A DNA stretch of 32,000 nt from Paenibacillus melissococcoides (GCF_944800085.1 NZ_CALYLO010000001.1:1727266-1759265); one strand, 5' to 3'. Positions 9,336 to 19,344 are shown, counted from the stretch's first letter. Numbers and translations: made by a program. The notes: generated by a model from the letters alone, not told the origin.

Positions 9336-9905
9336 ATGAAGCCTGTTCATGAAGAGGAGACGAAGCAGCTGATGCAGTCGGTCGGCGGCAACCTCCGCAA
9401 GCTGCGGAAGGAGCGGAAGCTGAGCCTGGAGGAGCTCGCGGCGCTCACCAGGGTAAGCAAATTGACGCTCGGCAATATCGAGCGCGGGGACACGAATCCG
9501 ACGATCGGGATGATGTGGAAAATTTCGAAGCAGTTGGAGGTCCCGCTGATGGCGCTGTTGAAGCCGGGAAATGCCGTGTCGATCTCCCGTGCGGGCGAAG
9601 GGCCGAAATATGACAGCGATCAGCCGGGTTGGACGCTGGAGCCGATGTTCAGCGATGTCAGGGAAAAGCTGGAGATGCATCGCGCGTTTGTGATGCCGCA
9701 TACCGTCTACATCCCGGAGAACCATCATGCCGGCACGATTGAGATTGTTACGGTGATGGCAGGATCCATCGAATTAACGATCGGCGAGAAGACGTATTCG
9801 CTGCAAACCTTTGATTCCATTCAATTTTCGGCTGCGGAATCCCACCGCTATCATAATCCCGGCGAGGAGGAAGCGGTATTGCATTTAACGATGTGTTACC
9901 CTTGA
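9336..9905 (+). CDS. XRE-family HTH + cupin domain transcriptional regulator, ~189 aa
   Basis: HTH: LRKLRKERKLSLEELAALTRVSKLTLGNIERGDTNPTI. C-terminal cupin: IEIVTVMAGSIELTIGEKTYSL..DSIQFSAAESHRYHNPG. Confidence 0.8.
   Translation: MKPVHEEETKQLMQSVGGNLRKLRKERKLSLEELAALTRVSKLTLGNIERGDTNPTIGMMWKISKQLEVPLMALLKPGNAVSISRAGEGPKYDSDQPGWTLEPMFSDVREKLEMHRAFVMPHTVYIPENHHAGTIEIVTVMAGSIELTIGEKTYSLQTFDSIQFSAAESHRYHNPGEEEAVLHLTMCYP
9632..9905 (+). repeat. Direct repeat copy 1 (3' 274 bp of the XRE-cupin gene), left flank of the van island
   Basis: Aligns with 19070-19344 with 7 substitutions and 1 single-base indel (about 97% identity). Confidence 0.9.
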
Positions 9906-10044
9906 ACAGGAGGATATTAATTTTTTTTCAAATGGATCAGCGGATATCCTACGTGGATCAGTGGATTCCAGTGATTATAAAAACTATATATTCGGAAAAG
10001 ATTCCGATTGAGAAAAGCAAATCCATAAAGGAGAGTTGATAACT

Positions 10045-10740
10045 ATGAGCGATAAAATACTTGTTGTGGACGATGAACATGAAATTGCCGAATTGGTTGA
10101 GCTATACTTGAAAAACGAGAATTATACGGTTTTCAAATACTATACCGCCAAAGAAGCGTTGGAATGTATAGACAAGACCGAGCTTGACCTTGCCATATTG
10201 GACATCATGCTTCCCGGCGCAAGCGGCCTCGCTATCTGCCAAAAAATAAGGGACAAGCACACCTATCCCATTATCATGCTGACCGCGAAAGATACGGAGG
10301 TAGATAAAATTACAGGGCTAACAATCGGCGCGGACGATTATATAACGAAGCCCTTTCGCCCGCTGGAGTTAATTGCGCGGGTCAAGGCGCAGTTGCGCCG
10401 ATACAAAAAATACAATGGAGTAACGGAGCAGAACGAAAATGTTATCGTCCACTCCGGCCTTGTCATTAATATAAACACGCATGAGTGTTTTCTGAACGAG
10501 AAGCCGTTATCCCTCACTCCCACCGAGTTTTCAATCCTGCGCATCCTCTGTGAAAACAAGGGGAATGTGGTTAGCTCCGAGCAGCTATTTCATGAGATAT
10601 GGGGCGACGAATATTTCAGCAAGAGCAACAACACCATCACCGTGCATATCCGGCATCTGCGCGAAAAAATGAACGACACCATTGATAATCCGAAGTATAT
10701 AAAAACGGTATGGGGGGTTGGCTATAAAATTGAAAAATAA
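10045..10740 (+). CDS. vanR: VanR, OmpR-family response regulator of a vanA-type cluster, 231 aa
   Basis: AAAGGAGAG RBS. MSDKILVVDDEHEIAELVELYLKNENYTVFKYYTAKEALECI... is near-identical to my recollection of Tn1546 VanR. Same length, and the same 23-nt overlap with vanS. Confidence 0.93.
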   Translation: MSDKILVVDDEHEIAELVELYLKNENYTVFKYYTAKEALECIDKTELDLAILDIMLPGASGLAICQKIRDKHTYPIIMLTAKDTEVDKITGLTIGADDYITKPFRPLELIARVKAQLRRYKKYNGVTEQNENVIVHSGLVININTHECFLNEKPLSLTPTEFSILRILCENKGNVVSSEQLFHEIWGDEYFSKSNNTITVHIRHLREKMNDTIDNPKYIKTVWGVGYKIEK

Positions 10741-11884
10741 AAATAAGAATAAAAAAACCGATTATTCCAAACTAAAACGAAAACTCTACCAGTATATCGT
10801 TGTGATTGTTATGGCAGCAGTTGTATTCGTGTTGTTTTTGCGTTTATTTATCAAGGGGACACTTGGGGAGTGGATCGTACGTTTTTTGGAAAACAGTTAT
10901 CACTTAGAGCGTCAGGACGCTATGAAAATATATCAGTATGCTATACGGAACAATATAGAAATCTTTATTTATGTGGCGATTGCCATTAGTATTCTTATTC
11001 TATGCCGCGTCATGCTTTCAAAATTTGCAAAATACTTTGACGAGATAAATAACGGCATTGATATACTTATTCAGAACGAAGATAAACAAATTGAGTTTTC
11101 TGCGGAAATGGAGTTCATGGAACAGAAGCTCAACACATTAAAACGGACCCTGGAAAAGCGAGAGCAGGATGCAAAGCTGGCCGAACAAAGAAAAAATGAC
11201 GTTGTTATGTACTTGGCGCACGATATTAAAACGCCCCTTACATCCGTTATCGGTTATCTGAGCCTGCTTGACGAGGCGCCAGACATGCCGGTAGAGCAAA
11301 AGGCAAAGTATGTGCATATCACGTTGGACAAAGCGTATCGCCTCGAACAGCTAATCGACGAGTTTTTCGAGATTACGCGGTATAACCTCCAAACGATTAC
11401 GCTCACGAAAAAGCACATAGACCTATACTATATGCTGGTGCAGATGACCGATGAATTTTATCCGCAGCTTGCCGCGAATGGAAAACAGGCGGTTATCCAT
11501 GCTTCCGAGGATTTGACCGTAACCGGCGACCCCGATAAGCTGGCGAGGGTCTTTAACAACATTTTGAAAAACGCCGCTTCATACAGCGAGGACAACAGCG
11601 TCATTGACATTACGGCGGGCCTCTCCGGGGATGTGGTGTCCATCGTTTTCAAGAACGCCGGAAGCATCCCCAAAGATAAGCTCGCTGCCATATTTGAAAA
11701 GTTTTACAGGCTGGACGCCGCCCGTTCTTCCGATACGGGCGGCGCGGGACTTGGATTGGCGATTGCAAAAGAAATCATTGTTCAGCATGGCGGGCAGATT
11801 TACGCGGAAAGCAATGATAACTACACGACGTTCACGGTAGAGCTTCCGGTCTTGCCAGACTTGGTTGATAAAAGAAGTTCCTAG
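10718..11884 (+). CDS. vanS: VanS, membrane sensor histidine kinase, 388 aa
   Basis: TTG start. Two N-terminal TM segments, H-box MYLAHDIKTPLTS, G-box SDTGGAGLGLAIAKEI. Collinear with Tn1546 VanS. The last base of the stop codon TAG is the first base of the IS. Confidence 0.92.
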   Translation: MAIKLKNKNKNKKTDYSKLKRKLYQYIVVIVMAAVVFVLFLRLFIKGTLGEWIVRFLENSYHLERQDAMKIYQYAIRNNIEIFIYVAIAISILILCRVMLSKFAKYFDEINNGIDILIQNEDKQIEFSAEMEFMEQKLNTLKRTLEKREQDAKLAEQRKNDVVMYLAHDIKTPLTSVIGYLSLLDEAPDMPVEQKAKYVHITLDKAYRLEQLIDEFFEITRYNLQTITLTKKHIDLYYMLVQMTDEFYPQLAANGKQAVIHASEDLTVTGDPDKLARVFNNILKNAASYSEDNSVIDITAGLSGDVVSIVFKNAGSIPKDKLAAIFEKFYRLDAARSSDTGGAGLGLAIAKEIIVQHGGQIYAESNDNYTTFTVELPVLPDLVDKRSS

Positions 11885-18512: not shown

Positions 18513-18989
18513 TTGGAAAATAAAAAATTGACATTCGTATTATTCATAATCTATGTATTAGCACTTATTTGGTTAGTTCTTTTTAAGTTACAGTTTTCTT
18601 TTGATCAAATAGACAGAGTGCGAGTAATTAATATGATTCCACTTAATAAGTCTGTGTTTTCTGAGGTGTATAGCAATATAAGCATTTTTGTACCTTTGGG
18701 TATCTATATTTGCATGTTGAAAAGTAAGTGGTCTTTTATGAAAAAACTTGTTTCAATTCTTGGTTTTACTCTGGCATTTGAGATTATACAATTTGTTTTA
18801 GCAATCGGAAGAAGTGATATTACTGATATACTGGCCAATACACTTGGAGGTACAATCGGTATTGGTATTTATGAGCTATTATTCAAGATTCTAAAACACA
18901 GGACGAATAAATTTATAAATTTATTTGCCTTGGTGTTAACTTCTTGTGCCATATTTTTTATTCTCTTTATATTTAAAAGGCACAGGTAG
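18513..18989 (+). CDS. vanZ: VanZ-like membrane protein, ~158 aa
   Basis: GGAGGAG at 18501-18507 followed by TTG at 18513. LIWLVLFKLQ, FEIIQFVLAIGRSDITDILANTLGG match the VanZ family and the Tn1546 VanZ pattern. Very AT-rich. Confidence 0.8.
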   Translation: MENKKLTFVLFIIYVLALIWLVLFKLQFSFDQIDRVRVINMIPLNKSVFSEVYSNISIFVPLGIYICMLKSKWSFMKKLVSILGFTLAFEIIQFVLAIGRSDITDILANTLGGTIGIGIYELLFKILKHRTNKFINLFALVLTSCAIFFILFIFKRHR

Positions 18990-19042
18990 GTACGTAATGA
19001 ATGAATTAGATTAGATGGAACACGGTATGTGGGGAAAATTTC

Positions 19043-19075
19043 CTTAACGTTGTAAATTCGCATTTTCCTGACGCT
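19043..19075 (-). repeat. Tn1546-like (Tn3-family) right terminal inverted repeat, inner 33 of 38 bp; outer GGGGT missing
   Basis: The reverse complement AGCGTCAGGAAAATGCGAATTTACAACGTTAAG matches 31/33 of my recollection of the Tn1546 IR (GGGGTAGCGTCAGGAAAATGCGGATTTACAACGCTAAG). Confidence 0.7.
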
Positions 19076-19344
19076 GGAGCCGATGTTCAGCGATGTCAGG
19101 GAAAAGCTGGAGATGCATCGCGCGTTTGTGATGCCGCATACCGTCTACATCCCGGAGAACCATCATGCCGGCACGATTGAGATCGTTACGGTGATGGCAG
19201 GGTCCATCGAATTAACGATCGGAGAGAAGACGTATTCGCTGCAAACCTTTGATTCCATCCAATTCTCGGCCGCGGAATCCCACCGCTATCATAATCCCGG
19301 CGAGGAGGAAGCGGTATTTGCATCTAACGATGTGTTACCCTTGA
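19070..19344 (+). repeat. Direct repeat copy 2 (relic of the XRE-cupin gene 3' end), right flank of the van island
   Basis: See 9632-9905. Carries an extra T at ~19318 that shifts the frame at the C-terminus. Confidence 0.9.

Follow-up and report, generated by a model that had tools for sequence, protein, structure and literature searches.

A vanA-type island in Paenibacillus melissococcoides lies between two diverged copies of a host regulator-gene end, a pattern consistent with integration by a single crossover

We analyzed a stretch of 32,000 nucleotides from Paenibacillus melissococcoides (GCF_944800085.1, NZ_CALYLO010000001.1:1727266-1759265; hereafter, the window), in which a 9.2-kb vanA-type vancomycin-resistance island is bracketed by imperfect direct repeats of the 3' end of a host gene encoding a regulator with XRE-family helix-turn-helix (HTH) and cupin domains. 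The two repeat copies appear to represent two functional alleles from closely related lineages rather than a recent duplication, and the island lacks a transposase, resolvase, or integrase of its own, apart from those of two secondary insertions. Campbell-type integration, that is, a single crossover between the resident gene and a circle carrying the island and a cupin-gene 3' fragment, would best explain the arrangement, and we place about even confidence in it.

The repeats were located by MAFFT alignment and a repeat finder at 9632-9915 (copy A) and 19070-19354 (copy B), 9438 bp apart from start to start, and comprise two blocks (9632-9880/19070-19318 and 9879-9915/19318-19354) with spacings of 9438 and 9439 bp, respectively. 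A preliminary description of this DNA had reported 275-bp direct repeats at that distance, differing by 7 substitutions and a 1-nt indel. Exact pairwise alignment of the coding parts (9632-9905 versus 19070-19344) confirmed this, with 274 nt in copy A and 275 nt in copy B, 7 substitutions (positions 9746, 9764, 9785, 9821, 9827, 9833, and 9885 in copy A numbering), one extra T in copy B, and an identity of approximately 97%. There is no difference between the copies over the leading 114 bp, for which P is approximately 0.01-0.02 given a uniform spread of differences. Their likeness fades 10-16 nt past the stop codon, matching the earlier estimate of about 15 nt, and the total duplicated length is approximately 284 bp.

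Copy A forms the 3' end of an intact gene with HTH_3 and Cupin_2 domains (9336-9905), the product of which is an exact protein entry annotated in P. melissococcoides and agrees at its C-terminus with all orthologues. Copy B is devoid of the HTH half and retains an open reading frame (ORF) of 100 codons (19083-19385), annotated by NCBI as a cupin-domain protein, with an intact Cupin_2 match and the same direction as vanZ, no terminator lying in between. The extra T, which is derived, all orthologues having the copy A state, shifts the frame near the end of copy B and changes the last 10 residues, after which copy B runs on into native downstream DNA. Host upstream DNA thus leads into copy A, and the native downstream DNA with its terminator follows copy B, so that the repeats are copies of one contiguous target segment in the topology expected from a single crossover.

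The distribution of the differences between the copies is informative as to their origin. Read in the cupin frame, the 7 substitutions are without exception synonymous (6 at third codon positions and one TTA/CTA difference), an outcome with P of 2e-5 to 2e-4 under neutral drift of both copies and of approximately 0.002-0.004 under the fairer model in which copy A is constrained and only copy B drifts (expected synonymous fraction 2f/(1+f), or approximately 0.40-0.46). Comparison of each repeat with orthologous cupin genes, as the preliminary description had proposed, placed the two copies nearest each other, with 7 differing sites between them versus 20-21 to the allele of P. dendritiformis G25-126, 25-28 to that of Paenibacillus sp. 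J27TS7, and 32-35 to that of P. thiaminolyticus BO5. Moreover, copies A and B have in common three derived sites (F118, M120, and A167) that none of 14 other alleles has. Their divergence amounts to approximately 0.1 per synonymous site; among sequenced P. melissococcoides strains, identity is 99.8% or higher. The exclusively synonymous changes, the nearest-neighbor status, and the shared derived sites together point to a second allele contributed by a close, unsampled relative. This upholds the preliminary view that the copies are different alleles and not a fresh duplication, whereas the question of which copy is donor and which is recipient received a mixed answer: outgroup polarization of the 7 sites yielded 4 changes derived in copy A, 2-3 in copy B, and 1 ambiguous, singling out no native copy, and the sequence after the stop codon is only slightly more P. 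dendritiformis-like in copy B than in copy A.

The right boundary of the island retains the end of a Tn1546-type transposon. Two blastn matches to Tn1546 of pWZ1668 were obtained, at 18995-19037 (91% identity), corresponding to the sequence directly after vanZ in Tn1546, and at 19036-19073 (97%), within which 19043-19073 agrees with the Tn1546 right inverted repeat (IR_R) at 30 of 31 positions; approximately 120 bp of the Tn1546 tail are missing between the two matching pieces (18995-19037 and 19043-19075). This is the single copy of a Tn1546-type inverted repeat (IR) in the window, where the chance expectation is 0. The Tn1546 terminus reads ...CCTGACGGTACCCC and the Tn1546 left inverted repeat (IR_L) reads ...GACGCTACCCC, whereas the window reads ...CCTGACGCTGGAGCC and, from GACGCT onward, is identical to the cupin gene from 9632. 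Hence, the IR has lost its outer 5-7 bp, and the joint is located within 4-6 bp of microhomology, GACG(CT) being common to IR_R and cupin positions 9632-9637, which falls within the range of 3-10 bp reported for homology-facilitated illegitimate recombination (HFIR) (PMC3240628). The illegitimate junction that had been suspected at 19043-19080 is therefore borne out. The joint is not a product of transposition, as no IR terminus, 5-bp duplication, IR_L, transposase, or resolvase accompanies it; the first two of these absences led us to reject both one-ended and ordinary Tn3-family transposition. A breakpoint so near the transposon terminus is unlikely to be random and suggests that a Tn1546-family end was once free or nicked, or abutted cupin DNA. 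In Brevibacillus laterosporus B9 (NZ_CP011076; 3228-3265 of locus L001), a complete Tn1546-type IR (…CTGACGGTACCCC) is found 2.8 kb upstream of the van cluster, oriented as the right end of a leftward element holding an integrase-like ORF; Tn1546-family ends thus occur beside van genes in Brevibacillus.

At the left boundary, copy A tracks copy B to approximately 9915-9921, and a 5' relic of a type I restriction-modification methylase gene (hsdM) begins by 9936, possibly a few bases earlier. The two are separated by a T-rich stretch of approximately 10-20 nt, and the position of the exact breakpoint is approximate. The translation of the relic, SADILRGSVDSSDYKNYIFG, is identical to residues 16-35 of the plasmid-encoded HsdM of Priestia megaterium pFDU301C, and the same relic precedes vanR in B. 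laterosporus B9 (approximately 6000-6060 of its locus), evidently because a vanRS module had inserted, in an ancestor, within or next to an hsdM gene. An ancestral linkage of XRE-cupin and hsdM genes, prompted by the P. megaterium plasmid match, was considered and rejected, the XRE protein there being only 29% identical and differently arranged, which indicates a coincidence.

The structure is not peculiar to one assembly. GCA_945318285.1 is 100% identical to the window, the 7.48-Mb chromosome AP031286.1 is 99.99% identical, and the same structure is present on contigs of GCA_018403065.1 and GCA_035803115.1, that is, in at least 4 assemblies. Short-read Logan contigs end within the repeat, as expected of a true repeat, and the study of Japanese P. 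melissococcoides strains from which the 7.48-Mb chromosome comes combined Oxford Nanopore and Illumina sequencing (PMC11834430). Misassembly, which the preliminary description had wished to see checked with long reads, is excluded. The island is present in all available P. melissococcoides genomes: exact-protein look-ups with the cupin regulator, phosphoesterase, VanX, and VanZ recovered neither an empty site nor a donor allele from conspecifics but only island-bearing P. melissococcoides contigs with 99.99-100% identity. A degenerate k-mer scan of Joint Genome Institute metagenomes for either allele yielded only P. dendritiformis-like genes of approximately 90% identity, and a protein homologue search found no allele closer than that of P. 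dendritiformis.

By contrast with the conspecific genomes, relatives of P. melissococcoides have just one cupin copy at the site, which is free of van genes; these are P. dendritiformis, Paenibacillus sp. J27TS7, P. thiaminolyticus BO5, P. profundus, P. apiarius, and two metagenomic contigs. The target is accordingly single-copy in 5 insert-free sister taxa, and the possibility that van-negative relatives already carried the duplication, which would have undermined the preliminary interpretation, did not materialize. The interval between the cupin and phosphoesterase genes is variable, extending from 0.68 kb in P. dendritiformis G25-126 to approximately 4.1 kb in relatives (3.7-4.1 kb in P. 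thiaminolyticus BO5 and Paenibacillus sp. J27TS7), and holds genes for DUF1529, GMC oxidoreductase, and hydrolase proteins in varied combinations. In P. melissococcoides, approximately 50 bp (19345-19401) lead from copy B to the convergent phosphoesterase gene.

From this anatomy, we infer the following order of events and a transfer into P. melissococcoides from a close relative. The island would represent the right-hand portion of a Tn1546-family element that is decayed and mosaic (vanR-vanS-(vanW relic)-vanH-vanA-vanX-vanY-vanZ-IR_R) and from which the transposase, resolvase, and left end have been lost, and it would have reached its present site by general recombination, not by transposition. 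A cupin fragment would first have been joined to the island illegitimately, with one joint at GACG(CT), 5-7 bp inside IR_R, and the other beside the hsdM relic upstream of vanR. A nonreplicating circle composed of the island and an XRE-cupin 3' fragment of approximately 290 bp from a closely related strain could then have undergone one RecA-type crossover with the resident cupin gene, probably within the 114-bp identical tract, the longest of those that match perfectly. Such an event would rebuild the complete regulator gene at the left edge (copy A) and leave a second fragment at the right edge (copy B), next to the native terminator. After integration, copy B would have acquired its 1-nt frameshift, and two resident IS5-family copies would have inserted at the vanS stop codon and in vanY. 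Experimental precedent exists: in an Escherichia coli assay built to recover HFIR, 56 of 60 integrants had a duplication of 109-950 bp of the homologous segment through single crossover of a circle, whereas true HFIR yields insertion-deletions with 3-10 bp of microhomology (PMC3240628). We favor Campbell-type integration on these grounds, because canonical HFIR deletes and single crossover of circles duplicates.

Several points weigh against this preference. Neither a circular form, nor a donor genome, nor a van-free conspecific was found among the available genomes and in the metagenome scan, and natural competence or another transfer route in P. melissococcoides is without documentation here. 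Just 2-3 of the 7 differences fall on the copy B lineage, so the allele argument draws on a modest number of sites. The 114-bp identity could equally have come from later gene conversion. Finally, the sequence fits equally well a circle and a linear fragment that had homologous pairing at one end and an illegitimate joint at the other; the two routes put forward in the preliminary description are thus both compatible with the pattern, which by itself does not separate them.

Under the linear-fragment scheme, HFIR would have combined homologous pairing on one side with a microhomology joint inside the anchor-homologous region on the other, looping in the island together with a second cupin 3' copy, and the anchor could have been either the cupin gene with its upstream DNA or the cupin 3' end with its downstream DNA. 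We regard this as the main rival, though a less likely one. The one clearly illegitimate joint has microhomology of a length reported for HFIR, the two-allele pattern is compatible with it, and the proximity of IR_R to the junction (within 5-7 bp) is most easily explained by a transposon end that once abutted cupin DNA; furthermore, arrays of "orphaned 3' ends" at type VI secretion system loci of Vibrio cholerae have been ascribed to HFIR-like displacement (PMC5361080). However, the canonical products of HFIR delete recipient DNA, whereas here DNA is duplicated, the duplications in the E. coli assay were traced to circular molecules (PMC3240628), and the joint is constrained to fall inside the anchor-homologous region. 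In a variant of this scheme, a Tn1546-like transposon would have inserted into the cupin gene and a wild-type allele would later have replaced the segment cupin5'-IR_L-tnpA-tnpR, restoring the regulator and keeping the van genes. This requires an additional microdeletion to take away the IR terminus together with the 5-bp target duplication; IR_L and tnp, for their part, have left no remnant.

Duplication of one allele in situ, for example by template switching at insertion, followed by divergence and perhaps by selection of copy B as a stand-alone cupin protein, seems quite unlikely to us. It would account for the copies being each other's closest relatives, for the intact Cupin_2 match of the 100-aa ORF, co-directional with vanZ, and for the 4 of 7 differences derived in copy A, which is constrained and would in any case be expected to change synonymously, yet neutral drift of copy B predicts approximately 54-60% nonsynonymous changes against none observed, copy B does not change faster than the synonymous sites of copy A, and its frameshift argues against sustained selection. 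Many genomic islands enter the 3' ends of genes and bring a substitute 3' end, leaving imperfect flanking direct repeats, and the island could, on that model, be a now-defective integrative element with the repeats as attL and attR; the variability of the cupin-phosphoesterase interval in relatives (0.68-4.1 kb, with differing gene content) would agree with this. We nevertheless consider it very unlikely: ORF and profile scans detected no recombinase of the tyrosine or serine type, either within the island or elsewhere in the 32-kb window, one repeat edge coincides with a truncated transposon IR and microhomology, an accidental-looking boundary unlike an evolved att site, and the variable DNA of the relatives consists of ordinary metabolic genes, with the 275-bp repeats absent from each of the 5 relatives compared. 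An assembly artefact or a transposase target-site duplication can be set aside with near certainty, as nothing beyond the presence of repeats and insertion sequence (IS) elements speaks for either. The copies differ at 8 positions in an identical structure recovered from independent accessions, so they are not collapsed or duplicated reads, and target duplications measure 5 bp in the Tn3 family and 2 bp (TA) for the resident IS, versus a repeat of approximately 284 bp. The preliminary judgment that the repeats are too long for such an origin therefore holds, the only transposon end being the truncated IR_R. A composite transposon formed by the two IS copies was also rejected as a vehicle because each copy has its own TA duplication in van DNA, well inside the island.

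The features of the island and its flanks are collected below. The G+C content is 45.0% in the island (29-58% across segments), compared with 54.1% and 50.4% in the left and right flanks, respectively, and this mosaic composition reflects a mosaic ancestry. The preliminary description was accurate in this respect and inexact in calling everything between the repeats van DNA, since the interval also contains two IS5-family copies, the hsdM and vanW relics, a 400-bp insert, and the Tn1546-type IR remnant.

Features of the vanA-type island of P. melissococcoides and its flanks, in window coordinates
Feature	Position	Strand	Basis and remarks
DMT/EmrE-family transporter gene, divergent neighbor of regulator, host flank	8238..9227	-	Pfam EmrE, 337 bits
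XRE-HTH + cupin regulator gene, intact, 189 aa	9336..9905	+	Pfam HTH_3, Cupin_2; alternative GTG start 9324
Direct repeat copy A	9632..9921	+	Coding part 9632-9905 plus approximately 10-16 nt post-stop
Left junction zone, cupin-downstream similarity to island DNA	9916..9936	.	Copies A and B aligned with B. laterosporus B9 and P. megaterium hsdM
hsdM 5' relic, 60 bp, upstream of vanR	9937..9996	+	Translation SADILRGSVDSSDYKNYIFG
vanR	10045..10740	+	NCBIfam vanR-A, 531 bits (cut-off 500)
vanS	10730..11884	+	NCBIfam HK_VanS, 441 bits (cut-off 400)
IS5-family insertion sequence copy 1, 832 bp	11884..12715	-	Pfam DUF4096, DDE_Tnp_1; TA target duplication
vanS-vanH spacer with vanW-like relic	12716..13121	+	94-95% identity to B. 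laterosporus B9 segment overlapping predicted vanW
vanH	13246..14214	+	NCBIfam vanH_Agroup, 707 bits (cut-off 700)
D-Ala-D-Lac ligase gene, vanA-type	14207..15241	+	NCBIfam D_ala_D_lac, 681 bits (cut-off 550)
vanX	15244..15852	+	NCBIfam dipept_VanX, 373 bits (cut-off 320)
vanY pseudogene	16290..18051	+	Frameshift near 16640; split by IS copy 2
IS5-family insertion sequence copy 2, 832 bp	16990..17821	-	TA target duplication; 3 nt different from copy 1
VanZ-family gene, Bacillaceae type, 29% G+C	18513..18989	+	vanZ-A model, 83 bits (cut-off 250), so not VanZ-A
Tn1546-type right tail + right inverted repeat	18995..19075	+	IR at 19043-19073/75, 31-33 of 38 bp; outer ACCCC end missing
Direct repeat copy B, cupin 3' relic	19070..19360	+	Begins within GACGCT microhomology with IR
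Native bidirectional terminator, common to cupin gene and convergent phosphoesterase gene	19402..19437	.	Terminator scan
Metallophosphoesterase gene, host right flank	19416..20291	-	NCBIfam YaeI-like; syntenic in relatives

The island encodes the VanR/VanS two-component regulator and the vanH-vanA-vanX core (D-lactate dehydrogenase, D-Ala-D-Lac ligase, and D,D-dipeptidase) of a VanA-type cluster, all with NCBIfam scores above the cut-offs. VanR is 94% identical to its counterpart in Tn1546 and 98% identical to that of B. laterosporus B9 at the amino acid level. The ligase, with 92% amino acid identity to Tn1546 VanA, scores 769 on the VanA-specific model, just below the cut-off of 775, and is thus a VanA-like variant rather than VanA proper. 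By contrast, VanZ is 38% identical to Tn1546 VanZ and 90% identical to a chromosomal Bacillaceae VanZ (locus L047). The vanY gene has been inactivated twice, by the frameshift and by the IS insertion at 16988/16990; two ORFs fit positions 1-106 and 109-226 of the vanY_AFMPt profile, and the 3' end (17817-18051) matches vanY of the same Bacillaceae locus. The spacer between vanX and vanY (15853-16289) has a high G+C content of 57.7% and no Pfam or Rfam match; its segment 15934-16077 has 94% identity to B. laterosporus B9, and the Bacillaceae locus shares the sequence from 15921 on. The 400-bp insert between the vanY 3' end and vanZ (18052-18451) has no family match and is absent from that otherwise collinear locus.

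The IS5-family copies, whose inverted repeats and TA duplications were defined against the uninterrupted B. laterosporus sequence, each comprise a pair of ORFs with a frameshift; they have the same orientation and enclose vanH-vanA-vanX together with the 5' part of vanY. The insertion of copy 1 regenerates the vanS stop codon (TAA to TAG). The separate TA duplication at each copy indicates independent insertions, both of which appear to be later than the arrival of the island, and recombination between the copies could delete or circularize vanHAX. Aside from these two insertions, ORF and profile scans identified no tnpA, tnpR, or integrase gene within the island, and an Rfam scan of 8000-21000 returned no RNA family. 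The one further transposase gene in the window, of the IS110 family (DEDD_Tnp_IS110; 26807-28051), is found 7.5 kb beyond the right edge of the island and has no relationship to its IS copies.

On the host side, the EmrE transporter gene is syntenic in P. dendritiformis, P. thiaminolyticus, and Paenibacillus sp. J27TS7. The native terminator is now 3' of copy B only, with homology to P. dendritiformis resuming at 19399, and the terminator scan detected no terminator-like hairpin between copy A and vanR (9906-10044). With no hairpin in between, transcription of the regulator gene could extend into the van regulatory genes.

The mechanism of integration considered here is classical. Nevertheless, we found no description in the accessible literature of the full island anatomy, the two-allele evidence, the Tn1546 IR_R relic, or the hsdM relic, and no mention of vancomycin in the accessible P. 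melissococcoides literature. Draft assemblies break at the IS copies and repeats, the IS copies leaving vanHAX on an isolated contig, which is why the locus is under-described in surveys, as vanHAX only (PMC9689679). The broader implication is that a resistance cluster without mobility genes of its own can still pass between related strains by ordinary recombination, the scar being a diverged duplication of the end of a host gene. P. melissococcoides, a pathogen of honey-bee brood, was described only recently. Roughly one in four honey samples from Japan tested positive for it (PMC11834430).

The IR_R relic, standing beside a cluster approximately 90% identical to enterococcal vanA, also bears on where Tn1546 was assembled and suggests that the link between van genes and the transposon end is older than enterococcal Tn1546. 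A more far-reaching proposal, which we consider doubtful, is that the vanZ-tail-IR_R end was attached to a Paenibacillaceae vanA-type cluster before the lineage entering enterococci, so that the island would be a surviving relative of the Tn1546 progenitor, and that the island may still be moving as a RecA-dependent excisable circle. If true, the host-gene fragment would act as an "address label," allowing transposase-free spread of vanA-type resistance between Paenibacillus strains.

Among known systems, Tn1546 is collinear with the island from vanR-vanS-vanH-vanA-vanX-vanY-vanZ through the post-vanZ tail to the right inverted repeat, with 86-92% nucleotide identity across vanRSHAX. However, the island is without IR_L, the transposase gene (ORF1), and the resolvase gene (ORF2), the latter two of which are located upstream of vanR in Tn1546, and its IR_R lacks the outer 5-7 bp and a 5-bp target duplication. 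It further differs in the Bacillaceae-type vanZ, the vanW and hsdM relics, the dead vanY, and the two IS5-family insertions, and in being chromosomal and fixed in P. melissococcoides. Given that a Tn3-family transposon has two 38-bp IRs (here, one truncated copy), tnpA and resolvase genes, and a 5-bp duplication (here, none), the island fails all three defining features and is not a Tn1546 transposon. It is a vanA-type cluster and a mosaic relative of vanA-Pt, vanA-Pa, and the Brevibacillus clusters. Like the island, the Paenibacillaceae and Bacillaceae clusters, including vanA-Pt of P. thiaminolyticus, vanA-Pa of P. apiarius, that of B. laterosporus B9, and the Bacillaceae vanRS-vanY-vanZ locus LT745776, lack transposition genes. 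From 9936 on, vanRS together with the hsdM relic shows 98% identity to B. laterosporus B9. Identity to LT745776 is 93-94% for vanZ and the 3' end of vanY and 86% for the 5' part of vanY. The island combines these in a mosaic, and its IR_R tail, cupin repeats, and IS insertions were not observed at those loci. With suicide or integration vectors inserted by a Campbell-type event, it shares an insert bracketed by repeats equal to the cloned homology, duplications of 109-950 bp being documented (PMC3240628), but the present case is natural, involves diverged alleles (approximately 97% identity), and has no vector backbone, replication, or transfer functions, the circle itself being deduced. HFIR as known from Acinetobacter, Streptococcus pneumoniae, Pseudomonas stutzeri, and E. 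coli resembles it in pairing one homologous side with an illegitimate joint at a short G+C-rich microhomology and differs in that recipient DNA is normally deleted, whereas at the island site 284 bp are duplicated and nothing is deleted.

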